NCBI GenBank assembly: GCA_003221005.1
Contig: QHTZ01000059.1
Location: 1-15,861 of the forward strand
DNA from: Gemmatimonadota bacterium
Lineage (GTDB): Bacteria; Gemmatimonadota; Gemmatimonadetes; Gemmatimonadales; GWC2-71-9
Direction: 5' to 3'
DNA length: 15,861 nucleotides
The notes under the pieces are model-generated. The model made no database searches and was not told the DNA's origin. It saw only the letters and a list, made by a program, of their open reading frames with translations. Position numbers and translations under genes: made by a program. Positions 2 to 15,860 of this stretch are shown here, piece after piece. Numbering within the stretch: position 1 is the stretch's first letter; each line of letters opens with the position of its first letter.

Positions 2-1144
2 GGCTACCAGCTCTGGGCGGCGCGATTCGAAGAACCGATACAGAACCGGTTCGCCTTGGAGGATCGCGTGGCGCGCGGCATCGTCTCGGCGCTCGAGTTG
101 CCCCTCAGCGCCTCGGAGGAACGCGCCCTCCGCGCAATCCCCACCAAGAATCTCGAGGCATACGACTACTACCTTCGCGGGAAGATCCGACTGCGCCGTG
201 AAAACCGGGAGGACGATTCGGTCGCGATCACGCTGCTCGAGCGAGCGGCAGCGCTCGATCCGGACTTCGCGGCGGCACACGCAGAGTTGGCCCGCGCCTA
301 CGTCCTGCGAGTCGAACAGTTCGTGTGGCGCGACACAGCGGTCATCGAACGGGCCTGGGTGGCGACGGAAAAGGCGCTGCGCCTCGACCCGGAACTTGCG
401 GAAGCTCACTTCGCTCGAGGCGCTCTGCTGTCCGGCCTGTCGGGCCGGTTGGCGCCCGAGCCGGCCGTGGGGGAATATCGCCGCGCTTTGGAGCTCAACC
501 CGAACCTGGCCCAGGCGCATCACGGCCTCGGTACCATCTACCTGCACCTCGGGCTCCTCGACAAAGCCGTTGACGAATTTCGCAGCACGCTCGCCATCGA
601 TCCGGGCAACTACGGCGCCACGCGGCGCATCGGCCTCGCCCTCGTATACCAGGGGCGATACGAGGACGGCCTACGCCTGATCCGCCAAGTCCCGCCCCAG
701 TCCAACCAATCCCTCTGGAACTATCAGGTTGCCTGGGCCCTGCTCTATCTCGGCAGGAACGACGAAGCGACCACGCTCATGGAGCGCTACCTGAGGGTGC
801 ACCCGGATGACCCCGGTGGCGTAGTCACGAGCACGCGCGCCGTGCTGTTCGCCAAGGCGGGAGATGCGGCGCGGGCGGAGGAGGATGTCCGGACCGCCCT
901 CGTGAAGGGAAAGGGATACGTCCATTTTCATCACACCGCGTACAACATCGCTTCCGTGTATGCCCTGCTGCACCAGCCGAGCCGCGCTCTCTACTGGCTC
1001 CGGCAGGCGGCGGAGACCGGCTGGCCCTGCTACCCCTACTTCGCGAGAGACCCGAATCTCGACAACATCCGGAGCGATCCGGGCTTCGTCGCCTTCATGC
1101 GGGAACTGAAGGCCCGATGGGCGCGGTACGGCGCGACGCTGTAA
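2..1144 (+). CDS. C-terminal part (end of TolB-like domain + TPR repeats) of a receptor paralog; 5' end lies outside the window
   Basis: Frame is open from base 2 (GYQLWAARFEEPIQNRFALED) and aligns with GNQLWADRFEDLTQNRFAIQD of the 8164..11319 protein. It has the NLEAYDYYLRG linker, TPR repeats (ALDPDFAAAHAELA, LELNPNLAQAHHGLG) and the shared tail HFHH...PCYP...DPNLDNIRSDPGF...ATL*. TTG 56 is not the real start. Confidence 0.9.
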   Translation, partial: GYQLWAARFEEPIQNRFALEDRVARGIVSALELPLSASEERALRAIPTKNLEAYDYYLRGKIRLRRENREDDSVAITLLERAAALDPDFAAAHAELARAYVLRVEQFVWRDTAVIERAWVATEKALRLDPELAEAHFARGALLSGLSGRLAPEPAVGEYRRALELNPNLAQAHHGLGTIYLHLGLLDKAVDEFRSTLAIDPGNYGATRRIGLALVYQGRYEDGLRLIRQVPPQSNQSLWNYQVAWALLYLGRNDEATTLMERYLRVHPDDPGGVVTSTRAVLFAKAGDAARAEEDVRTALVKGKGYVHFHHTAYNIASVYALLHQPSRALYWLRQAAETGWPCYPYFARDPNLDNIRSDPGFVAFMRELKARWARYGATL

Positions 1145-1264: not shown

Positions 1265-1768
1265 GTGCAGCTCGGTTCGCAGCTCTTCTCGATCGCCTTC
1301 GCGACGCTTCTCACCGCTGCAGGCCCGCTGTCGGCCCAGACGCTGGGATCGCCCGCGCCCGACTTCACCTTGAAGACGCTCGCCGGCGTCCGCGCGACCC
1401 TCGCCGACTATGCCGGGCGCCCTGTGTTCATCAACTTCTGGGCCTCCTGGTGCACGCCCTGTCGCGGGGAGATGTCCGACATCATCGCCGCGTACAACCT
1501 GCACCGGGATCAGCGACTGCAGGTGCTGGCGATCAACCTGACCGATCAGGAGCACATGAGCGACGTGCGAAGATTCGTGGACGAGTTCCAGATACCGTTC
1601 CCGGTGCTACTCGACCAGAGCGGGAAGGCCCGCAAGAGCTACGCGCTCCGCGGCGTGCCGACCTCGGTGTTCATCGATGCGCAGGGCATCGTGCGCCTTG
1701 TCAATCCCGGTCCCATCACGACGGCGACCATCCAGCGCGGGCTCGCTGCGATCCTACCCACGCCATAG
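1265..1768 (+). CDS. TlpA/ResA-family periplasmic thioredoxin-like disulfide reductase (167 aa)
   Basis: APDFTL, INFWASWCTPC (CxxC) and GVPTSVFID motifs; N-terminal signal peptide (...AGPLSA/Q). GTG 1265 follows a GGGGGA RBS-like sequence and is preferred over TTG 1247. Confidence 0.9.
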   Translation: MQLGSQLFSIAFATLLTAAGPLSAQTLGSPAPDFTLKTLAGVRATLADYAGRPVFINFWASWCTPCRGEMSDIIAAYNLHRDQRLQVLAINLTDQEHMSDVRRFVDEFQIPFPVLLDQSGKARKSYALRGVPTSVFIDAQGIVRLVNPGPITTATIQRGLAAILPTP

Positions 1769-2964: not shown

Positions 2965-4080
2965 TCATGCGCCGCGTTCGCACTGCGGGGCAACCGGATC
3001 GCCGTCCTCACCTTGGTCTTCTCCCGGCTCGTCTCCCGCTATGTCGGGCGGCCGCGGCGTGAAGACCTCCACCGAGTTGAGCGCGCTCGTGCCATCGAAG
3101 CCGCCGATGGCAAAGATCGTTCCGGCTCGCCCCACCGCCGCGGCGAGCGCTCCGCGGGGCGTGGCCAGCGGAGCCACGGGCGACCAAGTATCCGGCGAAG
3201 GATCGTACGCTTCCACTGCAGTCAATTCCTGGGTACCGGGAAATCCGACCGAGCCAACCGTGCCGCCCAGAGCGTAGATAATCCCACCTCGACCGAGCAC
3301 GGCGTCCAGAAATCGGCGCGCGGTCGGCATGCTCGCCACGGGCGTCCAGGTATCGGTGCACGGATCGTATGCGTCCACGGTCGTGACGGTAGTGACGCCG
3401 TTGATGCCGCCGATCGCGTAGATTCGGCCGTCCGGCGCCGTGACGGCTGAGAGCTTGCCCGCTCGAGGAGCAGGCAGCGGGGCGAGGTTGGTCCAGGTGT
3501 CGGTCGCCGGATCGTATGCCTCCACATTGCTGAGCTGCACGTTGCCGTTCGCGAATCCTCCAATGACGTAGATCCTGCCGTCCCGTCCAGTCGTCGCCGC
3601 TCCGCAACAGAGTGCTACCGGCAGCGGTGACACAGCGCTCCAGCTGTCGGTTGCCGGATCGTAGCGCTCGACGACGCTGCGGAACACACCCGCGAGCGCG
3701 CCGCCGATGGCATAGATACGTCCCGGCCGGTCGGTCGCCGCCATCAGGTAGCGGCGGGGCGTCGGCATCGGGGCCACCGGAGACCAGCTGCCGGTCTTCT
3801 GGTGGTATGCTTCCACTGTGGCAACGATGGGCCCCGCAAGACCAATCGAGCCGCCGAGCGCGTAGATGATGCCGTGCTTTCCGGTCGCCGCCGCGAGCCC
3901 GAAACGCGCCGTCGGCATGGACGCCACCGCTGTCCAGGTCCCGGTCGACCGGGCTGTTGCAACAGCGACGTCAGCCCGCGCGCGCGAGGCATTCGGACCA
4001 AGGGGCCCGCCATCGCGGTTACACGCTTGAACCAGCGCAATAGCGAGCGACAACTTCAGGATGCTGCGAAGCGGTTTCAT
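2965..4080 (-). CDS. Kelch-repeat (6-blade beta-propeller) lipoprotein (371 aa)
   Basis: AAAAGGAG RBS before ATG 4080; lipoprotein signal MKPLRSILKLSLAIALVQA/C. Six repeats of PTxR...IY(A/V)(I/L)GG...VE(A/R)YDP.TD.W and an acidic C-terminal tail. Confidence 0.9.
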   Translation of the reverse strand: MKPLRSILKLSLAIALVQACNRDGGPLGPNASRARADVAVATARSTGTWTAVASMPTARFGLAAATGKHGIIYALGGSIGLAGPIVATVEAYHQKTGSWSPVAPMPTPRRYLMAATDRPGRIYAIGGALAGVFRSVVERYDPATDSWSAVSPLPVALCCGAATTGRDGRIYVIGGFANGNVQLSNVEAYDPATDTWTNLAPLPAPRAGKLSAVTAPDGRIYAIGGINGVTTVTTVDAYDPCTDTWTPVASMPTARRFLDAVLGRGGIIYALGGTVGSVGFPGTQELTAVEAYDPSPDTWSPVAPLATPRGALAAAVGRAGTIFAIGGFDGTSALNSVEVFTPRPPDIAGDEPGEDQGEDGDPVAPQCERGA

Positions 4081-4161
4081 GACGCTACTCCTTTTCACAG
4101 GGCCCCTGATCCGCGAACCCATCCCGAGCCGGCGTGATTGCCGCTCGCAGACGTCACGGCT

Positions 4162-4223
4162 ACGTTAGGGCGACCGCACGCTGCGACGCGGCCGTCAGGC
4201 GACTGTGATGGGTCTGTGATGGG
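4162..4223. promoter_or_regulatory. Divergent promoter region 1: four 11-bp-phased repeats plus a leftward -10 element
   Basis: Cores GCGACG 4183, GTCAGG 4194, GTGATG 4205 and GTGATG 4216; CTGTGATGGG is an exact repeat at 4203 and 4214. TAACGT on the minus strand at 4167-4162. Confidence 0.6.
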
Positions 4224-4242
4224 AGCGTTATCAGGTGCCCAT

Positions 4243-6567
4243 GTGATCGAGCTTCGGCTGTTTGGTGGACTCGACCTGCGGCGGAGCGACGGGCGGGAGC
4301 TCGACTCCATCCTCACTCAGCCCAAGCGCATCGCCCTCCTGGCCTTCCTCGCCGCGGCCACTCCGTACCGCCTGCACCGGCGGGACACCCTACTCGGACT
4401 CTTCTGGCCGGAGCTCGACCAGGAACACGCGCGCGCCGCGCTCCGCCAGGCGCTCCACGGTCTGCGACAGGGTCTGGGCGCCGACGTGCTCACCAGCCGT
4501 GGCGATGAGGAAGTGGGCGTCGACGAGCAACGGCTGGGGTGTGACGTTCGCGCTTTCCAGCATGCCTTCGAGGCGAGTGACTGGGGCCACGCGCTCGAGC
4601 TCTACCGGGGCAGTCTGCTCGAAGGCTTCTTCCTCTCGGATTCGCCCGAATTCGAGCGCTGGCTGGAGGATGAGCGAGCGCGGTCGCGGAACCGAGCGTG
4701 CCAGGCCGCGTGGACGGTCGCGCAGCGCGGCAAGGCAGACGGCGATTTCGTGGTCGCCGCACATTGGGCGCGTCGCGCGGCGGCGCTCGTCCCCGGCGAT
4801 GAAGAGACGCTCCGCCGCTTGGTCGCGCTTCTGGACGATCTGGGCGACCGAGTGGGCGCCGTGCAGGTGTACGAAGAATTCGCGCGGCGTGTCGCCGTCG
4901 ACTGGCAGGTAGAGCCGGCCGCGGAGACCAAGGCGTTGATCGCTCTCGTGCGCTCGCGCGAGAGCGCGTCCCAGCCCGCGTTGCGCCCGGCTCCGGCATC
5001 CTTCACGGCGCCTCAGACCGCGGCACAGCCGCCCTCGGCCGTCTCCACCGAGCCGGCGGCACGGCGATTCACGCTACCGGGCAAGCGCTGGGTCGTTGGG
5101 ACCACCGGCCTAGCACTCTTGGCCGCTGTGATGGCGATCCGACACCAGCAAGCCAACGCACGCCTGAGCCGAGCGTCCGTGGGGATCGTCTCATTCGAAA
5201 ACCGCTCGGGGGACACGCTCGACGCGTACCTGGGTGCCGCGCTCACCGAGGACCTCACCCGCTCGCTCAGCGCCGCCCACCTCCTGCGCGTGTTCCGCGT
5301 GCCCCAAGCGCGCCTCGGCCTGGATTACATCCTGACCGGGAGCGTGAGGCACGCGCAGGACACCCTCGACGTCACGGCGCAACTCGAGCGCACCGGCTCC
5401 GGTGAGATCGTGTGGGCGACCCGGCTTGCTCTGCGGAGCCACGGGGCGATTACCGTCCCTCAGACGCTGACAAGTGGCGTTCTCCGCGCGCTGGGGGCCC
5501 CGGCCGGGGCTCCCACCGAGCGCCCCGCGCTGCCCCCCGATCCCGCCGCCTACGACCTGTTCTTGCGGGGCCGATACGAAGCCTCGAGGCGAACCGCACC
5601 CAGCCTCGGCCGAGCGGTGGCACTTTTGTCCGAGTCGATCCGCAGGGACTCCACCTTCGCTCCTGCGTGGGCCGGACTCGCTGCGGTGCTGCACAATGCG
5701 ACCCGGTGGGGTTCCCCGGTCCGCGGCGTCTCGCGAGAGAGTTTGCTGACGCGTGAGATCAGCGCGAGCGACCGTGCGCTCCAGCTGGACAGCACCGGCG
5801 TCGACGCATGGCTGACCCGCGCATCGGCGTCGGAAGACGTGGACCCCACCAGTCGCGGACCCGCGCTGCGAGCGATCCACCGGGCACTGGCCCTCGATTC
5901 GCTCAATGCTGAGGCCTGGGACCAGCTGGCAATGGCGTTTGAGGAGACCGGAAGTCGGGACAGCGCGGGAGCGGCGTGGCACCGGGCGATCGCCTTGGAT
6001 CCGGGATTCGTCCGGGCCAAGGCGTTCCTTGCTATCCACTACTGGTGGTGGCGTGCCTACGACAGCGCGGCCGCGTGGGCGGACAGCGCAGTGGCGACGG
6101 ACCCCCTGTACGGACTCGGGCGGGTCATCGCCGGCCAGGCTGCGCTGTCACGGGGCCGCCGCGACGAGGCGGAATCGCAGCTGGGCGCCGCCCGTCGCTT
6201 GCCCACCGGGCCTGGGAGCAACGGACTTTCGGGATTCGTCTCCCTGGCGGCCGCGGCCGGCGACACCTTTGGCGCACGCAGGCTTGTGGCCGAAGCCGAG
6301 GCCCGCACAGACTTCGCGGCGCCTGATAACCATAGCGCGGTCAACATCGCAGCCGCGTACGCAGTACTCGGCGGCGTCGACCGAGCGTTGGCGTGGCTCG
6401 AGCGCTATCGGCCGGCGCGCGACTTGCACTTCCAACTGCACTTGAGGCTCGACCCGCCACTTGATCCCCTCCGGCGCGAGCCTCGGTTCCAAGCGCTCCT
6501 ACTCAAGGGTCCCTTATTTCGCGCCCCACCGGAGGCTCCGCTCAAAAACGCAGCTGCAACTCGGTGA
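4243..6567 (+). CDS. SARP/BTAD-family transmembrane transcriptional regulator: wHTH-BTAD, TM, short TolB-like domain, TPR; no kinase (about 774 aa)
   Basis: IELRLFG...QPKRIALLAFLA...RRDTLLGLFWPELDQEHARAALRQAL (wHTH); LELYRGSLLEGF...EFERWLEDER (BTAD); Pro/Ala linker; TM WVVGTTGLALLAAVMAI; SVGIVSFENRSGD; DPAAYDLFLRG followed by TPRs. Start GTG 4243 chosen by alignment with the paralog starts MIELR; ATG 4219 is an alternative. Confidence 0.88.
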   Translation: MIELRLFGGLDLRRSDGRELDSILTQPKRIALLAFLAAATPYRLHRRDTLLGLFWPELDQEHARAALRQALHGLRQGLGADVLTSRGDEEVGVDEQRLGCDVRAFQHAFEASDWGHALELYRGSLLEGFFLSDSPEFERWLEDERARSRNRACQAAWTVAQRGKADGDFVVAAHWARRAAALVPGDEETLRRLVALLDDLGDRVGAVQVYEEFARRVAVDWQVEPAAETKALIALVRSRESASQPALRPAPASFTAPQTAAQPPSAVSTEPAARRFTLPGKRWVVGTTGLALLAAVMAIRHQQANARLSRASVGIVSFENRSGDTLDAYLGAALTEDLTRSLSAAHLLRVFRVPQARLGLDYILTGSVRHAQDTLDVTAQLERTGSGEIVWATRLALRSHGAITVPQTLTSGVLRALGAPAGAPTERPALPPDPAAYDLFLRGRYEASRRTAPSLGRAVALLSESIRRDSTFAPAWAGLAAVLHNATRWGSPVRGVSRESLLTREISASDRALQLDSTGVDAWLTRASASEDVDPTSRGPALRAIHRALALDSLNAEAWDQLAMAFEETGSRDSAGAAWHRAIALDPGFVRAKAFLAIHYWWWRAYDSAAAWADSAVATDPLYGLGRVIAGQAALSRGRRDEAESQLGAARRLPTGPGSNGLSGFVSLAAAAGDTFGARRLVAEAEARTDFAAPDNHSAVNIAAAYAVLGGVDRALAWLERYRPARDLHFQLHLRLDPPLDPLRREPRFQALLLKGPLFRAPPEAPLKNAAATR

Positions 6568-6633
6568 GCAGCTCGCCACGGCGAACTCCGGGGGACCCGA
6601 GCTTGCCCGACACGTAGTCCACGTCGGTTTCAT
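6542..6633 (-). pseudogene. Deletion remnant of a porin-like outer-membrane protein gene
   Basis: Strong RBS AAGGAGG then ATG AAA CCG at 6633, just downstream of the 6666 stop. A shifted frame then reads DVDYVSGKLGSPGVRRGELLTELQLRF-TGA(6544-6542), with mostly G/C third positions and a beta-barrel-type C-terminus. Confidence 0.55.
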
Positions 6634-6665
6634 GTGTTCCTCCTTCAGTCCTAGTTCGGCGCCGC

Positions 6666-7949
6666 CTACCGCACCGCCGCCACCGAGCTCCCGGACCGAT
6701 CGACCTCGTTCGCAGATCGAGCGACGTTGCGGCCGAGTTGCGCCCCCGTCTCGACGTCGAACCGGTAGTGAATGCCGGCGTAAATCCGCGCGAGCCCGGC
6801 TTGAGCCACCATCGCGTCCAGGCTATCGGCCTTCGCCGGGAAGAACGCGCTCAGAATCCCGGCGGCCGCGCCGCAGTAGCAGCTGTGCGCCGACGGGTAC
6901 GACGGGTGGTTGGGCAGACCGATCGCGGGGATGAGCGTGATAGCGGGGTCGGCCTGCGGCGGACGAATGAACCAATACGTGAGCTTCGCGTCCCAGCAGC
7001 CGATCGCCGCGTCCATCATCGCCGCGTCGAGCAACGCGAACACGTGCGTCGCTTCGCGCTCGCGCAGCGCGCTCTCCTCGATCCAACCGGTGGCGATCGT
7101 ATTCCACAGACCCCCGGCGCTGCTCGTGCCAGCGCCCCGAGCCCAGAACAGCGAGATGTTCACCTGCTCAGCCGTGCGGGTGTCGGAGATGCCTCGCACC
7201 TCGGCGAGCGCGCTGAGGTACGCGGGCGAACCGAACGCCGGCGGCGGGGCCGGCCGGAACTGATCGGCCGACGTCAGGAAGAACGGGCGCATGCCTGGGA
7301 GCTGGGCGTTGGCAGGCGGCTGAGGCGGCTTCGCACTGCTGAACCACACACCTGGCCCGAGCGGAACCGTGCCGGTCCAGGGCAGATCGAACCCGTCGGT
7401 CTGGGCCCGCGCGATCGCTGCCGCGCCTACCTGCCGGCCCACGGCCTCTCCGCGCACGAAGTCGGGATGCGGCTGGCCCGGTCCCGCCTCCGCTTGCTGC
7501 TGCACTTGGTCCTCAAACAGTTGTGCGTCGGCGGGATCGAAGTAGGCCAACACGACGGCGGACGCGCCCGCGACCGCCCCGCGGTCGGCTTCGAGCCGGC
7601 TGCGACCGCCAGAGCCTAGACCGGTTCCGGCGCTTGCCCGCGTCTCGGACGCGTCCCCGCCGAGGGCGTCCTCGGCGCTCACCACGGCGTCATATTGCGC
7701 GACGCTGAGATAGGCGTACACGCGCGTCGCGCGGGCGGAGTTGCCCGACAGCAGTGTGGACCGCATGATGACGTTGCGCGCTGTCTCCTGCCATGCAGGA
7801 CTCGCGAGCCCTTCGGTAAACGGGACGCCGCTGGCGGCAGCCACGAGGGGCTGCGCGGCGTCAGGGCCGAACAGGCGTTTGTCCGAATCGCAGGCGGAGG
7901 CCACAGCCGCCAGTGCGCAGAAGAGCGTGAGTCTCTCGATCGGTTTCAT
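6666..7949 (-). CDS. Vanadium-dependent haloperoxidase / PAP2-superfamily lipoprotein 1 (427 aa)
   Basis: GGAGG RBS before ATG 7949; lipobox ASA/C. Active-site motifs WDAKLTYWFIRP, PNHPSYPSAH and ARIYAGIHYRFD. The ORF-track start at 8201 overlaps the divergent gene. Confidence 0.88.
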   Translation of the reverse strand: MKPIERLTLFCALAAVASACDSDKRLFGPDAAQPLVAAASGVPFTEGLASPAWQETARNVIMRSTLLSGNSARATRVYAYLSVAQYDAVVSAEDALGGDASETRASAGTGLGSGGRSRLEADRGAVAGASAVVLAYFDPADAQLFEDQVQQQAEAGPGQPHPDFVRGEAVGRQVGAAAIARAQTDGFDLPWTGTVPLGPGVWFSSAKPPQPPANAQLPGMRPFFLTSADQFRPAPPPAFGSPAYLSALAEVRGISDTRTAEQVNISLFWARGAGTSSAGGLWNTIATGWIEESALREREATHVFALLDAAMMDAAIGCWDAKLTYWFIRPPQADPAITLIPAIGLPNHPSYPSAHSCYCGAAAGILSAFFPAKADSLDAMVAQAGLARIYAGIHYRFDVETGAQLGRNVARSANEVDRSGSSVAAVR

Positions 7950-8014
7950 CAGACACCTCCTGTTTGTCGGTCGCCGTCTCGGGATCGACCGGTGACGGCT
8001 CAGTTCGTTGCCAC

Positions 8015-8163
8015 GCCCTTGCTGCCGGGCTAGGTTTCGTTCGCGGAGCCAGTCTAGAGGAGGGGCGTAGCGTCCCTGTGACGCGAGCGTGACGCCGGCC
8101 GTCACGACCCCTAAGGCGTGCGTGGACCTCTGGACGGCGCCGCGTGCGCCACCGAGGCCTCGC
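8015..8163. promoter_or_regulatory. Divergent promoter region 2 with phased repeats
   Basis: GTAGCG 8067, GTGACG 8078, GTGACG 8089, GTCACG 8101 (spacing 11,11,12). The last two form the palindrome CGTGACG-CCGGC-CGTCACG (8088-8106). Candidate leftward -10 AAACCT at 8037-8032. Confidence 0.65.
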
Positions 8164-11100
8164 ATGATCGAGCTCCGCATGCTCGGGAGACTGAGCCTCA
8201 CCGGTGCCGACGGGCGCGAGGTGCGGACTCTCCTCGGACAGCCTCGGCGCTTCGCCCTCCTCGCCTACCTCGCCGCTGCAACACCGCTGGGCTTCCACCG
8301 CCGCGACACCCTGCTGGCGCTGTTCTGGCCCGAGCTCGACCAGGAGCATGCGCGTACCGCACTACGCCAGGCGCTCCGCGTGCTCCGCACGACCCTCGGC
8401 TCGGGCGGCGTAGTCGGCCGCGGCGACGAGGAGGTAAGCCTGGACTTCGGGCAGATCTGGTCGGACGTCACAGCCTTCGAGCGCGCTAGTAGTGCCGGCG
8501 AGTGGCTCGAGGCCATGGACTTGTATCGTGGTCCTCTGCTCGAGGGGTTCTTCATCTCGGGGGCGCCCGACTTCGAGCGCTGGCTCGAGAGCGCGCGCGC
8601 CCGGTTGGAGGAGGCAGCCTCGCGGGCGGCGCGAGCCCTGGTCGAGCAGTGTGAGTCGCAGGGCAATCTCACGACGGCCACGCACTGGGCCCGGCGAGCC
8701 GTGCGGCTGGCGCCGAGTGACGAGACGCTCGTGCGCCGGTTGATCCGTCTGCTGGACCATCACGGCGATCGCGCCGGCGCGCTCGAGGCCTATGAGGCGT
8801 TCGCGCACCAGCTCGCCGAGGACTACGCCGCGCAGCCCGCTGCCGAGACGCAGGCGCTGGTTGCGGCAGTCCGGGCGCGAGCCCAGGCAGCGCCACCGGT
8901 GCCGCTCCCCGCGGTGGACCTGCTGCCACGGCTGCAGGCTGGCGTCGCCGGCCGCTATCGAATCGAGCGCGAGCTGGCCCGCGGGCGAACGGCGACGGTC
9001 TTCGTAGCCCGTGACTTGAAGCACGACCGGCAGGTTGCGCTCAAGGTGCTGCACGCCGAGGTCGCCGCCGCAGTGGGGCCAGCGCGCTTCCTCCGCGAGA
9101 TTCAGTTCGCGGCTCGGCTGCAGCATCCCAACATCGTCGCGCTGCACGACTCCGGCGAGGCGGACGGCCTCTTGTACTTCGTCATGCCGTACGTCGTGGG
9201 CGAGTCCCTCCGGGATCGCCTCGACCGCGAGGCGCAGCTGCCCATCGCTGAGGCGCTGCGCATTGCTGGCGACGTGGCCAACGCACTGGGCTACGCCCAC
9301 GGCCTGGGCGTGATGCACCGGGATATCAAGCCCGAGAACATCCTGCTCGCCGACGGCCGCGCCCTCGTTGCGGACTTCGGGATCGCTCGCGCGATCAGTG
9401 CTGCGGGTAGCGAACGGCTCACTGAAACGGGCATCGCACTCGGCACACCCGCCTACATGAGCCCTGAGCAGGGTTCGGAGGATGGGCAGGTGGACGGCCG
9501 CAGCGACCTGTACGCCTTGGGCTGCGTGGTGTACGAGATGCTGACGGGTGCCCCGCCGTTCAGCGGCCCCACCGCGCAAGCGATCATGGCGCGACACGCC
9601 GTCGATCCCGTGGCTCCCATCCGCACCGTGCGAAATACGGTATCCGAGGAGGTCGAGCGGGCGGTGCTGAAGGCGTTGGCGAAGGTGCCCGCGGATCGCC
9701 ACACCGGTGCGGTCGAGTTCGCGCAAGTCCTGGCTGCGTCGAACCTCGAGCCCCAGGGGGGATGGCGGGGGGGCGGGAGCCGAAAGGCCAAGGTCGCGCT
9801 CGCTGCAGGTCTTCCGGTGGCCGCGGCCGTGGCGCTGTTCATCGGCTTCAATGTTGGCGGCTGGCGAGGCCGCCTCTCGGCCGCGAGCGGCGGGACCTGG
9901 CGCCGTTCCGTCGCTGTGCTGCCGCTCGACAACCTCTCCGGCGACACGACGCAGGACGCGTTCGCCGACGGGATGACGACGGCGCTCATCACTGATCTCG
10001 GGCGCGTGCGGGCCCTCCGAGTCATTTCCAAGCGATCGGTCCTGCCCCTCAAGGCCACGGCGCTCCCCGCGCGCGTCATCGGCGAGTCATTGCATGTCGA
10101 TGCGCTGCTGGAAGGAGGCGTCCAGCGATCGGGAAGTCGCTTCCGGGTCGATTTGGAGTTGCTTGATGCCACGTCAGGGAACCAGCTGTGGGCCGACCGG
10201 TTCGAGGACCTTACGCAGAACCGCTTTGCCATCCAGGACGCGGCGGCGCGCGGTGTGCTCTCGGCCCTGAAACTCCCGGTGACCGCGGCGGAGGCGCAGA
10301 GCCTCCGAACACCACCCACCAACAATCTCGAGGCCTACGATCTTTTCCTGCGGGGCAAGATCCGCGTGCGACACGAGACCCGGGAGGACGACTCCATCGC
10401 GATTGCGCTATTGCAGCGAGCCGTGGCGCTCGATCCGTCGTTCGCCGTTGCCCACGCCTGGTTGGCGCGCGCCTACACGCTGAGGGTCGCCCAGTTCGCG
10501 CCTCGGGACTCAGGGGCCCTGGAGGGAGCCTTCGTGGCCACAGAGAAAGCCCTCCAGCTGAACCCCGATCTCGCGGAGGCCCACTTCGCCCGGGCCAATC
10601 TGATCTGGGGTGCGACCAAACAGTTCGCCCACGAGCGCGCGATCCAGGAAGACCGGCGTGCTGTCGAGCTCAGCCCCAACCTGGACGCCGCGCATCATCA
10701 TCTCGGGCTCGTCTACATGCACATCGGGCTGCTCGACAAGGCGGTCGAGGAGCTGCGCAAGACGCTTGCCATCGACCCCGGCGACTGGATGGCGCAGGAA
10801 CGCATCGGTGAGACCGAGCTGTGGCAGGGGCGATACGAAGAGGCATTCCGGATCTTCCGAGCAGTTCCCCCGGAATACAACCCGACGTTCTGGAACTACG
10901 ACGCGGCGTGGGCGCTCATTCAGCTCGACAGGAACGAGGATGCCTCGGCGCTGATCGAACGTTCCTTACACGACCATCCGGAAGACCGCGGCGGCCTGAT
11001 GACCGGCCTGCGCGCTATCGTGTTCGCCAAGCAGGGCGACGCGCGCCGGGCGGAGGCCGACATCCAGTCGGCCATACAGAAGGGGAAGGGCTTCGTTCAC

Positions 11101-11319
11101 TTTCACCACGCCGCATACAGCATCGCCACGGCATACGCGCGGCTCCGGAAGCCGCGGGCCGCGGTCGAGTGGTTACGCCGAGCGGCGGAGAACGGCTTGC
11201 CGTGCTACCCGCTGTTTGCGAGCGATCGCAATCTCGACAACATCCGCCGCGATCCCGCATTCGTCGCCTTCTTGCGCGAGCAGAAGGCGCAGTGGGAGCG
11301 CTGGCGGGCGACGCTGTGA
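8164..11319 (+). CDS. SARP wHTH-BTAD + Hanks-type Ser/Thr kinase + TM + TolB-like + TPR receptor (1051 aa)
   Basis: MIELRMLG start with GAGG RBS; BTAD motifs; kinase motifs VALK, HRDIKPEN, DFG, GTPAYMSPE, DLYALG; TM VALAAGLPVAAAVALFIGF; SVAVLPLDNLSGD...FADGMT (TolB-like); TPRs. Confidence 0.93.
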   Translation: MIELRMLGRLSLTGADGREVRTLLGQPRRFALLAYLAAATPLGFHRRDTLLALFWPELDQEHARTALRQALRVLRTTLGSGGVVGRGDEEVSLDFGQIWSDVTAFERASSAGEWLEAMDLYRGPLLEGFFISGAPDFERWLESARARLEEAASRAARALVEQCESQGNLTTATHWARRAVRLAPSDETLVRRLIRLLDHHGDRAGALEAYEAFAHQLAEDYAAQPAAETQALVAAVRARAQAAPPVPLPAVDLLPRLQAGVAGRYRIERELARGRTATVFVARDLKHDRQVALKVLHAEVAAAVGPARFLREIQFAARLQHPNIVALHDSGEADGLLYFVMPYVVGESLRDRLDREAQLPIAEALRIAGDVANALGYAHGLGVMHRDIKPENILLADGRALVADFGIARAISAAGSERLTETGIALGTPAYMSPEQGSEDGQVDGRSDLYALGCVVYEMLTGAPPFSGPTAQAIMARHAVDPVAPIRTVRNTVSEEVERAVLKALAKVPADRHTGAVEFAQVLAASNLEPQGGWRGGGSRKAKVALAAGLPVAAAVALFIGFNVGGWRGRLSAASGGTWRRSVAVLPLDNLSGDTTQDAFADGMTTALITDLGRVRALRVISKRSVLPLKATALPARVIGESLHVDALLEGGVQRSGSRFRVDLELLDATSGNQLWADRFEDLTQNRFAIQDAAARGVLSALKLPVTAAEAQSLRTPPTNNLEAYDLFLRGKIRVRHETREDDSIAIALLQRAVALDPSFAVAHAWLARAYTLRVAQFAPRDSGALEGAFVATEKALQLNPDLAEAHFARANLIWGATKQFAHERAIQEDRRAVELSPNLDAAHHHLGLVYMHIGLLDKAVEELRKTLAIDPGDWMAQERIGETELWQGRYEEAFRIFRAVPPEYNPTFWNYDAAWALIQLDRNEDASALIERSLHDHPEDRGGLMTGLRAIVFAKQGDARRAEADIQSAIQKGKGFVHFHHAAYSIATAYARLRKPRAAVEWLRRAAENGLPCYPLFASDRNLDNIRRDPAFVAFLREQKAQWERWRATL

Positions 11320-11324
11320 GCGAA

Positions 11325-11358
11325 GGGGCGTCGAGGCGATCCGTCGCCCCGACGCCCC
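11325..11358. terminator. Hairpin between convergent genes (probable bidirectional terminator)
   Basis: GGGGCGTCG-A-GGCGA-TCCG-TCGCC-C-CGACGCCCC, a 14-bp stem with one mismatch. Confidence 0.65.
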
Positions 11359-11371
11359 GTACCTTCACACG

Positions 11372-12730
11372 CTATGAACGCCTTCCATGATTAGGCTGCG
11401 CGACGTTCGCCACAACGTAGTTACCGATCGCATCGCCTGTCGCTCGCCCGTCGATGCAGGCTGAGCGGAAGTGAATGCCAATGTAGACTCGGGCGTCGTT
11501 CACCTCTTCGGACGCCCCTGAGAAACTGGTATACGTGCGCAGCACACCGGGGAGGTTGTCCGACGCGGCGGTGAACGTGGCGTTATCACCGAAGGAGGAG
11601 GCGAGCACCGCAGCTGCGGCGCCGCTGCTCGTGCTGTGGCCTGATGGATAGTCCTGATGCGCGGGTGTGTTGTGCATACCCCCTACTAGGCGCAGCGGGA
11701 ACCACTCGGCATCCGCGGTGGTCGCAGGATTGCCGTCGGTGTCAGCCAGGCGAATCGCGGTGACGGGACGCCAGAAGTTGTAATGGAACTTGGCGTCCCA
11801 GGCGGCAATAGTGGCATCGGCCATCGCGATGTTGAGCAGAGCAAACAGGCGGGCGTTTTCCGAGAGGGTCGTGTGACGCTCAGCGGCCATGGATAAGGCG
11901 ATTCGATTCCAGTGGACCACGCCGTTATCATCCCAGAAGAGGGCGATCTGCGTTTGCTCAGCCGTGCGGGTCGAGCTGGTTGCGCTGCCGATTTCTTTGA
12001 CCTCATTGAAGTCTCTAGTGTACTGGTCGCTCGCCAAGTCGGGCGGTCCGGCCGGACGAAACTGCGAAGGGGAAGCCATCGCAAACGGAGTCACACAGGC
12101 CATCTGCGGGAACACGGCCGCACGGAAGTCGGGGGGCGTCGGACGCCACTGCCCCGGGGCCGGCGACGAAGGGAGGGGGATGGGGCACGGAGCATTGAAA
12201 GGAGGGTTCAAGCCGTCAGTGCTGCGCCACGCGAGGATGTCGTTGGCAACTTCCTCTCCCCACTCGATGCCGCGCGCGATGGACTCGCTTTCCTCAAGCT
12301 CTCCGCCGTCAGTAATCGAGGCGAGCGATGCCGACCGCTCGAGATCGAACGTGGCTTTCTGTGATGGGAAGAGGTTTACGAGGGCAACGTAGGCCGCCTG
12401 GATGGCGGCGGCGCGACGCGAGGCCCCCCGTGGCGCATCGGCGCCTACATGGTAGGGGATATACCGGCGCTCAATTCCGTTGACTGCGTCGAAGACGGCC
12501 GCCTGGACGATGGCCAGACGCCGTCCCGTGATCACGGGATTCGTGTTCTCCACCTTAATCGCATTCAGCGTGTTTCGATTCCACTCGGTGACCACGTCCG
12601 GAGACTCCGCAGACTCCGCGAATTCGTCGAATGCCGGCGAACCTGGCCTGACCGGCGTGTCCGGATTGCATGCCAGCACCAGCGCCAAGAGCGCCGCGCC
12701 GACCGTGAGCCTTCCACTGATGCGTCTCAT
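11372..12730 (-). CDS. Vanadium-dependent haloperoxidase / PAP2-superfamily lipoprotein 2 (452 aa)
   Basis: AAAGGAG RBS; lipobox VLA/C; N-terminal helical domain (DVVTEWN...AVFDAVNGI). Motifs WDAKFHYNFWRP, PAHQDYPSGH and ARVYIGIHFRSA. Confidence 0.9.
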   Translation of the reverse strand: MRRISGRLTVGAALLALVLACNPDTPVRPGSPAFDEFAESAESPDVVTEWNRNTLNAIKVENTNPVITGRRLAIVQAAVFDAVNGIERRYIPYHVGADAPRGASRRAAAIQAAYVALVNLFPSQKATFDLERSASLASITDGGELEESESIARGIEWGEEVANDILAWRSTDGLNPPFNAPCPIPLPSSPAPGQWRPTPPDFRAAVFPQMACVTPFAMASPSQFRPAGPPDLASDQYTRDFNEVKEIGSATSSTRTAEQTQIALFWDDNGVVHWNRIALSMAAERHTTLSENARLFALLNIAMADATIAAWDAKFHYNFWRPVTAIRLADTDGNPATTADAEWFPLRLVGGMHNTPAHQDYPSGHSTSSGAAAAVLASSFGDNATFTAASDNLPGVLRTYTSFSGASEEVNDARVYIGIHFRSACIDGRATGDAIGNYVVANVAQPNHGRRS

Positions 12731-12762
12731 CGCGCTTCTCCTTTAGAAACTGTGATTGCTGT

Positions 12763-12911
12763 GCCCCTGCAGCGGGGCTAGGTTTGACTTGCGGAGCCAG
12801 TTTAGGAGAGCCGCGTCACGCCCTTGTGATGCGACCGTCACGCCGGCCGTAACGGCGACCGCGCCTTGCTCGTGAGCCTCCGAACTGCGCCGCATGCCGC
12901 CGAGGCCTCGC
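12763..12911. promoter_or_regulatory. Divergent promoter region 3, homologous to region 2
   Basis: GTCACG 12815, GTGATG 12826, GTCACG 12837, GTAACG 12849 (spacing 11,11,12, as in region 2). GGGCTAGGTTT and GCGGAGCCAGT are conserved; candidate leftward -10 AAACCT at 12785-12780. Confidence 0.65.
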
Positions 12912-15641
12912 ATGATCGAGCTCCGCTTGCTCGGGAGGTTGAGCCTCACGAGCGCCGATGGGCGCGACGTCCGGGCTCTGCTCGGCCAGCCCCGACGCCT
13001 CGCCCTCCTCGCCTACCTCGCCGCCGCGACACCCCCAGGCTTCCACCGCCGTGACAGCCTGTTGGCACTCTTTTGGCCGGAGCTCGACCAGGAGCATGCC
13101 CGCGCCGCGCTGCGCCAGGCCCTACACGTGGTCCGCGACGCGTTGGGCGCCGACGCCGTCGCGAGCCGCGGCGACGAGGAGCTTGGCCTCGACTTCGATC
13201 GGGTCTCGTGTGACGTGGCTGCCTTCGGCCGCGCGATCGACGGCGCGCAGTTCCGAGAGGCCCTCGACGTCTATCGGGGCGATCTGCTGGAGGGATTCTT
13301 CATCGCGGGGGCGCCGGACTTCGAGCGGTGGCTCGAGACCGAGCGCAGTCGGCTGCGGGAGACGGCATCGCGAGCGGCGCGGATGCTGGGGGAGCACTGC
13401 GAAGCCGACGGCAACCTCACCACCGCCGCTCACTGGGCTCGTCGGGCGCTAGACCTCGCCCCGAACGAGGAAGCGCTGTTGCGCCGTCTGATCACCGTAC
13501 TGGACCGGCACGGCGACCGGGCGGGCGCGCTGCAAGCGTACGAGGAGTTCAGGGCGCGGCTCGCCGACGAATACGAAGCTCAGCCGGCACCCGAAACGGA
13601 GGCTTTGGTTGCCGCGGTGCGAGCGCGGGAGCGGGCGCCCGGGTCGCTTCCGCTACCCCCAATGGATCTGCTCGCGCGGCTGCGCGCCGGGCTTGCCGAT
13701 CGCTACCGCGTCGAGCGCGAGCTGGCGCACGGGCGGACTGCGGCGGTTTTCCTCGCCCACGACCTGAAGCACGAGCGCCCGGTGGCGATCAAGGTGCTCC
13801 ACCCCGAGCTCGCGGCCGCCGTGGGCGCCGAGCGCTTCCTCCGCGAGATCCAGCTGGCTGCTCGGCTCCAGCACCCCCACATCGTCGCGCTGCACGACTC
13901 GGGCGAGACGGATGGCCTCCTCTATTTCGTCATGCCCTACGTCGCAGGCGAATCCCTGCGCGCACGCCTCGAGCGCGAGCCGCAACTCCCGATCGCCGAA
14001 GCGATTCGCGTGACGGGCGACGTGGCGCAGGCACTGGGCTACGCCCACGGCCTGGGTGTAGTGCACCGCGACATCAAGCCGGAGAATATTCTGCTCGAAG
14101 ACGGCCACGCCCTCGTGGCGGACTTCGGGATCGCGCGAGCGATCAGCGCCGCCGGCAGCGAGCGGCTCACTGAGACGGGCATGGCGCTCGGCACACCCGC
14201 CTACATGAGTCCGGAGCAGGGGGCGGAAGACGGGCAGGTGGATGGGCGGAGCGATCTCTACGCGCTCGGCTGCGTGGCCTACGAGATGCTGACCGGGACG
14301 CCGCCATTCACCGGGCCCACGGCCCAAGCCATTCTCGCGCGTCACGCCGTGGACCCCGTCGCGCCGATCCGGACGGTGCGGAAGACGGTGCCCCGCGGGG
14401 TCGAGCAGGCCGTGCTGAAGGCCCTGGCCAAAGTGCCGGCGGACCGCTACGCCGGCGCGACGGAGTTTGCGCAGGCGCTGACCCAGCCGGCCCTCGAGCA
14501 AGGGTCGAGCCGGCGCCAATCGAAAAGCCGGGGAGCAAAGCTCGCACTCGGCGCGGGCCTCTCGGCAGCCGCCGCTCTGGCGCTGCTGGTCGGCTTCAGC
14601 CTTGGGGGCGGGCGGGAGCGGCCGCATCCCCGGGCCCCACTCACGAGCAACGCCGAGGCGTACGATTTGTACCTGCGCGCCGACATGCTTCTCACCCAGC
14701 GTCAGAATCGGGAGAACGATTCGGTCGCGATCACCCTGTTCGAGCGCATCGTGGCGCTGGATCCGAGCTTTGCCGCTGCCCAGGCCGGGCTGGCGCGCGC
14801 CTACGCGCTGCGGGTGAGCGAATTCGATCCGGGGGACACGGCGGCCCTTGAACGAGCCCAGGTGGCCGCGGACAAGGCGCTTCGCCTCGACCCGAATCTC
14901 GCGGAGGCACACCTTGCCCAGGCCCGCCTGCTGTGGGGGCCCTCAAACCATTTCTTCCACGAGCGAGCGATCCAGGAAATCCGGCGCGCCCTGAGCCTCG
15001 ACCCGAACATAGGGCACCACAATCTGGGGAACATCTATCTGCATATCGGAATGCTCGACGAAGCGATTGCCGATCTTCAGAAGACGCTCGCGATCTCGCC
15101 CCGCTCGGACAACGCCCTGCGGCGCATCGCGGAGGCACGTGCACACAAAGGGCAATATGAGGAGGCCCTAAGAATCCTGAGCCAGGTAGACCCCGAGGCC
15201 AACCCGCCCTACTGGTACTATCAAATGGCGTTCGTGCTGCTGCACTTGGGGCGGCGCGACTCGGCGTTCGCACTGATACAGAACTACCTGCGGGAGCATC
15301 CTGAAGACCGGGGCGGCGTTGTGACAAGCGCGCGGGCCGTCTGGTTTGCCATGGCCGGGGACGCACCCGGCGCGGAACGAGACATGCAGACCGCTGTCCA
15401 GAAGGGGAAGGGATACATCCACTTCCATCACGCCGGCTACCACATCGCTCTCGCTTACGCGTTGCTCCACCGGCCGGACTCGGCGGTACAGTGGTTGCGT
15501 CGCGTGGCCGATGGCGGGATGCCCTGCTATCCGTGTTTCGCCGGCGAACCCTTCTTGAACGGCATCCGGACGGATCCGGGGTTTGTCGGCTTCATGTCGA
15601 AGCAGAAGGCGCAGTGGGAGCGGTGGCGGGCGACGCTCTGA
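12912..15641 (+). CDS. SARP wHTH-BTAD + Ser/Thr kinase + TM + TPR receptor lacking the TolB-like domain (909 aa)
   Basis: MIELRLLG start; BTAD; VAIK, HRDIKPEN, DFG, GTPAYMSPE; TM LALGAGLSAAAALALLVGF followed almost directly by TSNAEAYDLYLR and TPRs. Confidence 0.92.
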   Translation: MIELRLLGRLSLTSADGRDVRALLGQPRRLALLAYLAAATPPGFHRRDSLLALFWPELDQEHARAALRQALHVVRDALGADAVASRGDEELGLDFDRVSCDVAAFGRAIDGAQFREALDVYRGDLLEGFFIAGAPDFERWLETERSRLRETASRAARMLGEHCEADGNLTTAAHWARRALDLAPNEEALLRRLITVLDRHGDRAGALQAYEEFRARLADEYEAQPAPETEALVAAVRARERAPGSLPLPPMDLLARLRAGLADRYRVERELAHGRTAAVFLAHDLKHERPVAIKVLHPELAAAVGAERFLREIQLAARLQHPHIVALHDSGETDGLLYFVMPYVAGESLRARLEREPQLPIAEAIRVTGDVAQALGYAHGLGVVHRDIKPENILLEDGHALVADFGIARAISAAGSERLTETGMALGTPAYMSPEQGAEDGQVDGRSDLYALGCVAYEMLTGTPPFTGPTAQAILARHAVDPVAPIRTVRKTVPRGVEQAVLKALAKVPADRYAGATEFAQALTQPALEQGSSRRQSKSRGAKLALGAGLSAAAALALLVGFSLGGGRERPHPRAPLTSNAEAYDLYLRADMLLTQRQNRENDSVAITLFERIVALDPSFAAAQAGLARAYALRVSEFDPGDTAALERAQVAADKALRLDPNLAEAHLAQARLLWGPSNHFFHERAIQEIRRALSLDPNIGHHNLGNIYLHIGMLDEAIADLQKTLAISPRSDNALRRIAEARAHKGQYEEALRILSQVDPEANPPYWYYQMAFVLLHLGRRDSAFALIQNYLREHPEDRGGVVTSARAVWFAMAGDAPGAERDMQTAVQKGKGYIHFHHAGYHIALAYALLHRPDSAVQWLRRVADGGMPCYPCFAGEPFLNGIRTDPGFVGFMSKQKAQWERWRATL

Positions 15642-15650
15642 ACCGTGGCG

Positions 15651-15860
15651 CTAGCGGAACACCGGCGTCAGCGGCGGATCACCGTTGAGCACCGCCCGCA
15701 CGTTCGCGAGTGCCGCCGCAGCCATGGCGCGGCGCACCTGTGGCGTCGCGCTCCCCAGGTGCGGGAGCAGCACGGTGCGGGGCGCGGCGAGGAGCCGCGA
15801 GTGGATCTTGGGCTCCTCCAAGTACACGTCGAGCCCGGCTGCGCCGAGGTGCCCCTCCTC
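15651..15860 (-). CDS. C-terminus of a D-isomer-specific 2-hydroxyacid dehydrogenase (D-glycerate dehydrogenase/glyoxylate reductase type); partial
   Basis: Own translation, absent from the ORF track: EEGHLGAAGLDVYLEEPKIHSRLLAAPRTVLLPHLGSATPQVRRAMAAAALANVRAVLNGDPPLTPVFR*. GLDVY..EP and LPHLGSAT are family motifs. Confidence 0.9.
   Translation of the reverse strand, partial: EEGHLGAAGLDVYLEEPKIHSRLLAAPRTVLLPHLGSATPQVRRAMAAAALANVRAVLNGDPPLTPVFR

Follow-up and report, generated by a model that had tools for sequence, protein, structure and literature searches.

Divergent lipoprotein genes face predicted membrane-tethered SARP regulators, some fused to Hanks kinases, in Gemmatimonadota

Gene organisation of the window

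We analysed a stretch of 15,861 nucleotides, hereafter the window, which is the entire contig QHTZ01000059.1 (C47 in our numbering) of a Gemmatimonadota genome (GCA_003221005.1; G000), a bin of 2.79 Mb in 141 contigs. The window carries three consecutive cassettes, in each of which a gene encoding a regulator with a SARP-type N-terminus (the receptors R1, R2 and R3) is transcribed divergently from a lipoprotein gene (cargos 1, 2 and 3). Gene models combine a listing of open reading frames (ORFs) and Pfam scans with the calls of a codon-usage gene caller that had been trained on the host genome. Each cassette, comprising the receptor gene, the control region and the lipoprotein gene, occupies about 4 kb.

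2 to 1144, plus strand: the 3'-terminal 380 codons of a fourth receptor gene, with Pfam TPR matches and a TPR-end motif at the C-terminus; the contig begins inside the gene, so that its 5' part is missing
2965 to 4080, minus strand: cargo 1, Kelch-repeat beta-propeller lipoprotein of 371 amino acids (Kelch_1, E 5e-69; lipobox), with leader MKPLRSILKLSLAIALVQAC (MKPLRS..LVQAC) and AGGAG 7 nt 5' of the ATG
4081 to 4242: intergenic control region of unit 1
4243 to 6567, plus strand: R1, 774 amino acids from the GTG at 4243, with an in-frame ATG at 4219
6666 to 7949, minus strand: cargo 2, PAP2-superfamily lipoprotein of 427 amino acids (PAP2, 38.3 bits, cut-off 27.2; lipobox), with leader MKPIERLTLFCALAAVASAC (..VASAC) and GGAGG 5' of the ATG
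7950 to 8163: intergenic control region of unit 2
8164 to 11319, plus strand: R2, 1051 amino acids
11372 to 12730, minus strand: cargo 3, PAP2/vanadium-haloperoxidase (VCPO)-like lipoprotein of 452 amino acids (PAP2, 37.1 bits, cut-off 27.2; weak VCPO matches; lipobox), with leader MRRISGRLTVGAALLALVLAC (..LVLAC) and AAGGAG 5' of the ATG
12731 to 12911: intergenic control region of unit 3
12912 to 15641, plus strand: R3, 909 amino acids

The gene models, the Pfam matches and the lipobox rule bear out the three consecutive divergent units at 2965-15641 that a preliminary description of this DNA had proposed. The PROSITE PS51257-type lipobox rule places a Cys at position 15-35 and a Lys or Arg within the first seven residues; all three cargos pass it, lipidation itself being a sequence prediction, and a Shine-Dalgarno sequence precedes each of the three lipoprotein starts. 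The same description had suggested that a fourth receptor is cut by the window start, and this agrees with the match of the frame at 2-1144 to the C-terminus of R2 (phmmer, E 8.3e-154). This frame also shares 85% DNA identity with genes for kinase-less SARP receptors of 775 amino acids, with a predicted transmembrane (TM) segment and TPRs, in two of the compared loci (L123 and L125), where the divergent partner is a PD40 lipoprotein gene.

Conservation of the receptor-lipoprotein gene pairing

The host genome contains six ORFs with a SARP domain: the three in the window, two further receptors that lack an AAA domain (on contigs C68 and C34), and an AfsR-like SARP-AAA gene with an AAA_16 domain on contig C70. 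The C68 receptor gene lies opposite a subtilase lipoprotein gene and the C34 receptor gene opposite a PD40 lipoprotein gene; for the non-AAA SARPs of this genome the upstream gene is divergent in 5/5 cases and has a lipobox in 5/5. The wider comparison, with the same gene calling throughout, covered all SARP hits in 20 related genomes, 77 loci from species-representative genomes and 80 metagenome loci out of more than 346 matching; L037, L046, L076, L081 and L090 (5 of the 66 SARP hits), L038, which has no BTAD match, and one duplicate were left out of the counts. The upstream gene is divergent in 12/12 cases in the related genomes, in 42/46 GTDB loci and in 73/74 metagenome loci, and carries a lipobox in 5/12, 23/46 and 60/74 respectively, as compared with a genome background of 584/2581 (divergent) and 168/2624 (lipobox), the pairing counts not being independent trials because the compared loci are mutually related. 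SARP-AAA paralogues, which served as an internal control, gave 10/40 for divergence and 2/40 for the lipobox. The adjacency of receptor and lipoprotein genes is strongly non-random and conserved; chance adjacency is rejected on the divergence and lipobox counts against background.

The partners belong to at least eight unrelated families. Those without a lipobox mostly have an ordinary signal peptide at the N-terminus, and for a small number a cytoplasmic enzyme is predicted (GMC oxidoreductase, aldehyde dehydrogenase). The term 'secreted enzyme', under which the cargos had initially been grouped, proved too narrow, since propellers (Kelch, PD40 and RCC1) are among them, as are many proteins without a Pfam family.

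Domain architecture of the receptors

Alignment with kinase-less relatives resolves the receptors into four modules: a SARP part (residues 1 to ~245), an optional kinase of ~290 residues, a hydrophobic segment, and an optional alpha/beta module followed by TPRs. The N-terminal part consists of a winged helix-turn-helix (wHTH) and a BTAD domain.

R1: wHTH-BTAD 1-245, hydrophobic segment 283-299, weak TolB_N-like module, TPR; kinase absent
R2: wHTH-BTAD 1-245, Hanks kinase ~265-515, hydrophobic segment ~541-564, weak TolB_N-like module, TPR
R3: wHTH-BTAD 1-245, Hanks kinase ~262-525, hydrophobic segment 541-564, TPR superhelix 575-909; TolB_N-like module absent

All four combinations of presence and absence of the kinase and the alpha/beta module are found among receptors: both in R2, the kinase only in R3, the module only in R1 and in relatives of 769-775 amino acids, and neither in relatives of 635 amino acids. 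The single shared plan envisaged at the outset holds for the lipoprotein gene, the repeats and the order wHTH-BTAD, hydrophobic segment and TPR in all three units, but R2 and R3 possess a kinase and R3 is without the alpha/beta module. The three units are thus variations on one plan and not copies, because kinase and alpha/beta module differ between them.

Assignment of the N-terminal part to the SARP family draws on several comparisons. BTAD (PF03704) scores 34.6, 54.0 and 72.2 bits in R1, R2 and R3 (cut-off 22.1; E-values 3e-8, 3e-14 and 7e-20). A profile built from 31 N-termini retrieved EmbR from the PDB (2fez, E 3.5e-15, profile positions 3-251 to residues 12-269) as well as AfsR (8hvr/8k60/8jke, E 2.7e-14 to 2e-12), such that the N-terminal 250 residues align over their full length with the solved EmbR and AfsR structures, the DNA-binding domain being included (the match starts at profile position 3). 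A phmmer search of the PDB with the R3 N-terminus alone returned designed TPR proteins only and did not reach EmbR or AfsR. In an AlphaFold2 (AF2) model of R3, in which the three folded parts are modelled confidently (mean predicted local distance difference test score, pLDDT, 81.6), residues 1-95 form helices at 27-38, 47-54 and 60-78 and a hairpin at 83-93, which we read as a winged helix-turn-helix. Many positions of the DNA-binding domain are invariant in a SARP-domain alignment of 33 homologues, and the Pfam scan revealed no AAA_16, NB-ARC or FHA domain in R1-R3. By sequence, R1-R3 can be assigned to the SARP family.

Each receptor has one hydrophobic segment of 17-24 uncharged residues, with 17-residue Kyte-Doolittle hydropathy values (KD17) of 2.03 in R1, 2.46 in R2 and 2.24 in R3; a membrane segment is predicted from hydropathy alone. 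Modelled in isolation with AF2, the C-terminal domain is an all-helical TPR superhelix on a nine-repeat scale (pLDDT 94.3), and the TPR end of R1 is matched at E 1.2e-9 (TPR_END_plus). A Foldseek search with the TPR domain returned generic TPR proteins only and gave no hint of a ligand. 'TolB_N-like' is only a label, as the match on R2 (E 0.006) lies below the cut-off, and a search of PDB sequences with the juxtamembrane module gave no significant match (best E 0.036).

A sister clade of SARP-TPR proteins without a hydrophobic segment, predicted to be soluble, was also observed (L138, L141, L142, L148, L152, L154, L158, L162, L164 and L169). Its divergent neighbour is an exported alpha/beta-hydrolase gene or another signal-peptide gene, and its intergenic regions display 11-bp phasing too, with the core CGTTGC/CGTGAC.

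The fused Hanks kinase

The initial picture of a plain one-component protein does not extend to R2 and R3, which carry a full Pkinase domain of the Hanks type (E 3.5e-48 and 4.9e-47, respectively) inserted between BTAD and the hydrophobic segment. Among 75 kinase-bearing homologues the HRD motif is present in 74, DFG in 73 and SPE in 74, and the catalytic-Lys motif VA[IL]K is visible in the alignment of fused kinases. The host genome encodes 26 Hanks-kinase ORFs, several with the same TM-TPR C-terminus; one stand-alone kinase (C45_130816) matches R2/R3-type parts at E 1.5e-110 for the kinase and 2e-32 for the TPR domain. This resemblance of the kinase and TM-TPR parts of R2 and R3 to stand-alone receptor kinases fits an origin by recombination between SARP-TM-TPR and kinase-TM-TPR genes.

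The fusion is not peculiar to the window. Across the phylum, from which 301 genomes were sampled, at least 10 more genomes have a BTAD-kinase junction in a single frame, a lower bound based on 150 of 1872 matches, and among the matches listed these genomes are all in the window's own family. R3 itself matches an identical protein cluster and has homologues of 70-90% identity. Automatic names assigned by the JGI ('serine/threonine protein kinase / DNA-binding SARP family transcriptional activator') mean that the SARP-kinase domain fusion is already visible in databases.

A functional coupling of a Hanks kinase to a SARP is described for AfsK/AfsR and PknH/EmbR (PMC1262709). In SARP-AAA genes of the same order, a Hanks kinase gene lies directly upstream in 12 cases, nine of these pairs running in the same direction and six sharing 4 nt; the SARP-AAA gene on C70 overlaps the end of its Hanks kinase gene by 4 nt. 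The conserved AfsK/AfsR-like pair (C70:12082-16805 and 11 loci in related genomes) consists of a Hanks kinase of ~940 amino acids with a membrane segment, followed by a SARP-AAA gene of ~620-640 amino acids, frequently with a 4-nt overlap.

The abundance of kinases with the same TM-TPR C-terminus in this genome, together with the conserved catalytic residues and the gain or loss of the kinase at least three times on the SARP-domain tree, would suit a model in which R2 and R3 are mainly receptor Ser/Thr kinases for other substrates. The SARP domain would then be regulatory or vestigial, and its adjacency to a lipoprotein gene would be inherited from a kinase-less ancestor and be without current function. 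We hold this to be highly improbable, since R2 and R3 equal their kinase-less relatives in the degree of SARP-domain conservation, and the repeat arrays of both are intact and nearly identical in orthologues.

Phased repeats and putative promoters in the control regions

Each control region contains an array of four short direct repeats, a promoter motif directed toward the receptor gene and a putative -10-like hexamer facing the lipoprotein gene.

4138 to 4166, plus strand: promoter motif TTGCCG-17 nt-TACGTT toward R1
4178 to 4183, minus strand: candidate -10-like hexamer CAGCGT (nAnnnT) facing cargo 1, ending 10 nt from the GT of the first repeat
4192 to 4234: four repeats in 11-bp phase, CCGTCAGGC, CTGTGATGG, CTGTGATGG and GCGTTATCA, upstream of R1
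8008 to 8036, plus strand: promoter motif TTGCCA-17 nt-TAGGTT toward R2
8051 to 8056, minus strand: candidate -10-like hexamer TAGACT facing cargo 2, fitting the offset provided that the degenerate GTAGCG at 8067 is taken as the first repeat
8065 to 8108: four repeats in 11/12-bp phase, GTAGCG at 8067, GTGACG at 8078, GTGACG at 8089 and GTCACG at 8101, upstream of R2
12756 to 12784, plus strand: promoter motif TTGCTG-17 nt-TAGGTT toward R3
12799 to 12804, minus strand: candidate -10-like hexamer TAAACT facing cargo 3, within the conserved block GGAGCCAGTTTAGG
12813 to 12856: four repeats in 11/11/12-bp phase, GCGTCACGC, TTGTGATGC, CCGTCACGC and CCGTAACGG, upstream of R3

The repeats share the core YGT(C/G/A)AYG, with four copies per region at a spacing of 11 or 12 bp, and the R3 array is nearly identical in orthologous loci (L094-L099, L110, L117). 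The phasing that had been noticed by eye is upheld by a motif-free autocorrelation of the three window regions, which peaks at lag 11 (16 matches, z +4.2) and is raised at lag 22 (z +2.9), compared with a lag-11 z of +0.6 in 109 other divergent intergenic regions of the host genome. The lag-11 z rises to +14.2 in 45 homologous intergenic regions and is +8.5 in 25 regions of other receptor clades, and the spacings between motif matches peak at 11 (39), 12 (15), 22 (19) and 23 (10) bp. A genome-wide scan for at least three phased GTnAYS elements identified eight arrays (0-2 in shuffles), four of which are intergenic, and three of those four lie in the window. The fourth intergenic array (C45:190-218) reads GTTACC, GTAACG, GTAACG and then GTAAGC, with a -10-like hexamer TAGCTT upstream; there is no SARP gene to its right, and the leftward-reading gene beside it is truncated where the contig begins. 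This array may represent a target regulated in trans or what is left of a cassette.

On the receptor strand, to the left of each array, lies the motif TTGCNN-17 nt-TA(C/G)(C/G)TT. It has 64 matches genome-wide, 52 of them in intergenic DNA, which makes up 6.9% of the genome, mostly just upstream of gene starts, and it also precedes rplU-like (L21), groES-like and infA-like (IF-1) genes; we read it as the housekeeping promoter of the host. The relaxed form TTG(A/C)NN-16..18-TA(C/G)(C/G)TT is ~29-fold enriched in intergenic DNA of this genome and often stands 7-13 nt before the predicted start codon, which suggests that leaderless or very-short-leader mRNAs are frequent in the host. The consensus promoter occurs on the receptor strand in 33/45 homologous regions and on the cargo strand in 0/45. 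Given the motif on the receptor strand, the receptor genes look constitutively promoted, with the array lying within their 5' leader.

In 18 of 21 arrays, an A-N3-T hexamer (nAnnnT) on the cargo strand stands exactly 16 nt to the left of the first repeat's GT; the per-position background is 3.1%. The gap between array and hexamer is fixed at 8-10 bp, and the hexamer faces the lipoprotein gene and has no -35 element. The rule for SARP promoters, as set out in PMC11301090, is that 11-bp-phased direct repeats end ~8 bp from a -10 that lacks a -35, and the array with its -10-like hexamer appears to have the layout of such a SARP-dependent promoter. If start sites are placed at the usual 7 nt from the -10, those predicted for cargo and receptor fall within 1-2 nt of each other, near 4172, 8043 and 12791.

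In each of the three window regions the array falls at roughly +24 to +65 on the downstream side of the receptor's own promoter, a position shared by 33/45 homologous regions, and it might for this reason be an operator for receptor autoregulation only, acting as a roadblock on the receptor's own 5' leader while the lipoprotein gene is controlled otherwise. We consider this unlikely. The cargo genes have no consensus promoter in any of the 45 regions, the distance to the cargo-facing hexamer is fixed in 18 of the 21 arrays, and the divergent partner is retained at the frequencies given above (73/74 and 42/46), which pure autoregulation does not require. Autoregulation and activation of the cargo gene are not mutually exclusive.

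R1-R3 have a nearly identical recognition helix (DQEHAR[AT]ALRQAL) and the same repeat core. Each circuit had been described as self-contained, a view that these shared features do not support; cross-talk between units is possible.

Exchange of lipoprotein bodies and evolution of the cassettes

Receptors that are 75-88% identical to R3 face different partners: cargo-3-like PAP2 proteins, a second PAP2 type with another leader, BPSS1187-family proteins (NCBIfam; 345-355 amino acids) and a third type, assigned to no family (L117). DNA homology between the window and R3-type loci extends from the receptor gene across the control region into the cargo ORF, of which it covers the first 70-105 nt, ending at 12626-12660. 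About 20-30 mature residues past the lipobox Cys (CNPD.PVRP.SP.FD.., window 12626-12730 and orthologous loci) were seen to be conserved together with the leader although the body differs, and these residues may be either the footprint of a recombination breakpoint or a functional tether. When 93 complete partners were clustered, the leader plus 30 residues proved at least 50% identical across different mature-domain clusters (PD40/PAP2, PD40/BPSS1187, PD40/Kelch and PAP2/BPSS1187). By sequence comparison the conserved unit appears to be the receptor, the control region and the lipoprotein leader, with an exchangeable mature body.

This pattern bears on whether the lipoprotein could serve the TPR domain as a co-sensor or binding partner in the periplasm, in the way that ToxS, TcpH or VtrC serve ToxR-type regulators, and not be the regulated output. 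TPRs are protein-binding modules, the first 20-30 mature residues are conserved with the leader despite the body swap, and co-component systems are documented for ToxR-like regulators (10.1101/2022.04.08.487670). On the other side, receptors whose TPR domains remain 80-83% identical face mature cargos of unrelated folds (PAP2, BPSS1187 family, PD40, Kelch), the receptor and lipoprotein genes are divergent and not co-transcribed, and some partners are predicted to be cytoplasmic. A co-sensor role is accordingly very unlikely in our judgement; with the body swapped and the TPR domain conserved, the lipoprotein looks like the output and not a specific binding partner.

Cargo 1 has orthologues of 79-86% identity (L143, L104) and cargo 2 of 76-83% (L104, L109, L114). 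In the SARP-domain tree (53 rows), Kelch-facing and PD40-facing receptors form well-supported clades, and the R2/R3 clade mixes cargo types. Units 2 and 3 have homologous control regions and SARP domains that are 70-71% identical. Simple tandem duplication of one unit is rejected, since cargos 2 and 3 are 30-34% identical, unit 1 belongs to a separate, well-supported clade and the unit order varies on related contigs: in L104, for example, the R2 unit precedes the R1 unit, and in L123 the order is the fourth-receptor unit, redoxin and barrel genes, and then the R2 unit.

The remaining genes of the window are as follows.

1265 to 1768, plus strand: exported ResA/TlpA-like redoxin
1931 to 2893, plus strand: protein of 320 amino acids without a Pfam family, ending ..RRF, possibly an outer-membrane barrel
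15651 to 15860, minus strand: 3' gene end that reads, by eye, like a 2-hydroxyacid dehydrogenase

The redoxin gene and the gene at 1931-2893 were seen to move together with the cassettes, collinear and at 69-85% DNA identity, in L094, L096, L104, L123, L125 and L143.

In the nearest same-genus genomes the best identity to R1-R3 is 36%, and copies of 84-95% identity are found on other soil contigs. The lack of close orthologues in same-genus genomes implies that the array of cassettes is strain-variable or that the contig is mis-binned. Cassettes 76-85% identical to the window were also observed on contigs titled Rokuibacteriota (L100, L104, L130) and Chloroflexi (L123) from the same soil series of metagenome-assembled genomes; most simply, these titles are a binning error.

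Discussion

SARPs are soluble activators of antibiotic clusters in actinomycetes, and ToxR and CadC are the textbook membrane-tethered transcription factors. The window receptors appear to draw on both. We favour, with a probability of roughly 60%, the interpretation that they are membrane-tethered SARP activators of the adjacent lipoprotein gene, some of which are single-chain fusions of an AfsK/AfsR-type kinase and regulator. The preliminary proposal that the SARP switches on its neighbour is sustained in so far as the adjacency statistics, the SARP-like placement of the array and the lack of consensus cargo promoters (0/45) point to it; activation itself we infer.

In the mechanism that we envisage, the receptor would be a bitopic inner-membrane protein with a cytoplasmic N-terminal SARP activator and a TPR superhelix beyond the hydrophobic segment. 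Its gene would be transcribed from its own housekeeping-type promoter, with the array just downstream. Two to four receptor molecules could dock by their winged helices on one face of the DNA and recruit RNA polymerase to the leftward promoter, which would switch on the lipoprotein gene. Because the predicted start sites coincide, the two promoters should compete, and cargo activation should occlude the receptor promoter and so provide negative feedback. An envelope cue would act through the TPR domain to determine the oligomeric or active state, and in R2 and R3 phosphorylation by the Hanks kinase, in cis or inside an oligomer, probably modulates the SARP domain.

A number of observations count against this interpretation. 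With respect to DNA binding, Pfam Trans_reg_C did not reach E 0.01 on R1-R3, and did so in 5 of 23 relatives scanned. The repeat motif was not matched at the more distant C68 and C34 receptor paralogues. An E. coli-type scan of the three intergenic regions gave 0 promoters and 0 terminators in each, for which reason an organism-specific promoter motif was used, and this motif, which came from the very regions in question, was checked across the genome afterwards. L130-type arrays fall outside the 16-nt offset rule, and the nAnnnT hexamer is low in information and the compared loci are homologous; its conservation could instead reflect the receptor transcript start, and the array, placed downstream of the receptor promoter, could be an autoregulatory operator only. 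With respect to the kinase, the glycine-rich loop in the fused clade reads A[HR]GR[TM]A[TA]V in ~70 homologues (most commonly ARGRTAT, 21, and AHGRTAA, 13) and departs from the canonical GxGxxG, whereas the stand-alone kinases of the host genome have G[RH]GGMATV and all keep GxGG. The altered loop lies at ~270-280 in both R2 (window 8970-9005) and R3 (window 13720-13750) and makes the activity of the fused kinases uncertain. With respect to topology, the balance of Lys and Arg residues on the N- and C-terminal sides of the hydrophobic segment (5 v 3, 4 v 4 and 4 v 3) gives a weak positive-inside bias. The segment is absent in 13 of 53 relatives in which the divergent secreted partner is still there, so that the membrane tether is a trait of the window receptors and their clade and not essential to the cassette. 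Finally, residues 527-576 of the R3 model have a pLDDT <50 and show no long helix.

These long low-confidence linkers around the hydrophobic segment, together with the existence of a soluble clade that lacks the segment and the reported activation of CadC by cleavage (PMC11484849), could also accommodate a SARP domain that is active only after regulated proteolytic release from the membrane, a mode of action suggested for certain other membrane-bound regulators. No protease gene is conserved in the gene lists of the cassettes and the sequence holds no sign of a cleavage site, and we judge proteolytic release to be the least probable of the alternatives, its likelihood being slight.

The tethered-activator interpretation is best seen against the known systems that it resembles. 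With SARPs such as AfsR, ActII-ORF4 and DnrI of Streptomyces and EmbR of Mycobacterium, R1-R3 share an OmpR-type winged helix and BTAD, and the cassettes share the 11-bp-phased direct repeats ~8 bp from a -10 without a -35. Known SARPs, however, are soluble and are either small or extended by NB-ARC/AAA and TPR (AfsR) or by FHA (EmbR), whereas in R1-R3 a predicted membrane segment and TPRs follow BTAD, with a kinase added after BTAD in R2 and R3. Moreover, known SARPs act on biosynthetic clusters in actinobacterial hosts, while here the host belongs to the Gemmatimonadales and the predicted target is one lipoprotein gene. ToxR and CadC are comparable in predicted topology (OmpR-type DNA-binding domain, one membrane segment, extracytoplasmic C-terminus) and in the presumed control of a neighbouring gene; R2 residues 593-777 also match the CadC model PRK10153 (E 1.2e-6), a weak and partial hit of 27.7 bits against a cut-off of 400. 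Unlike ToxR and CadC, R1-R3 have BTAD, and in some cases a kinase, between the DNA-binding domain and the membrane, their TPR superhelix differs from the periplasmic fold of ToxR/CadC, and the cassettes have no co-transcribed ToxS-like partner. Since the outer domain differs, the window receptors are not members of the ToxR/CadC group; by analogy, they are predicted to work most like tethered activators of that type.

For R2 and R3, the AfsK/AfsR and PknH/EmbR pairs offer a further comparison. These are separate proteins, whereas R2 and R3 are single polypeptides with the predicted membrane segment and sensor at the C-terminal side, no FHA or NB-ARC domain and an altered glycine-rich loop; the Gemmatimonadales also have separate kinase and SARP-AAA gene pairs. 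The Pkinase-TM-TPR receptor kinases of Gemmatimonadota are homologous to R2 and R3 in kinase, membrane segment and TPR, but lack the N-terminal SARP and possess a canonical GxGG loop. The preliminary description knew of no characterised example, and our full-text literature searches, which did not cover subscription journals, likewise brought up no publication that describes a SARP bound to the membrane, a fusion of SARP and kinase, or these cassettes.

More tentatively, and with some doubt on our part, the cassettes may form a recombination-prone plug-in platform composed of a membrane SARP sensor, an overlapping promoter pair with its array, and a conserved leader and tether, in which lipoprotein bodies are swapped just after the lipobox and the kinase phosphorylates its own SARP domain. 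If true, this would represent the first membrane-tethered SARP and the first single-chain AfsK/AfsR-type kinase-transcription factor receptor.

The cassettes combine the SARP and ToxR/CadC ideas in a little-studied soil phylum, and R2 and R3 provide a natural 'Rosetta stone' fusion for the long-discussed link between kinases and SARPs seen in AfsK/AfsR and PknH/EmbR. With what appear to be sensor, operator and a single output in ~4 kb, the system is unusually tractable for asking how a tethered activator finds and fires its promoter, how Ser/Thr phosphorylation affects a SARP and how a soil bacterium tunes its envelope lipoproteins. The combination of a conserved leader with an exchangeable cargo suggests a route by which new lipoproteins come under ready-made control.

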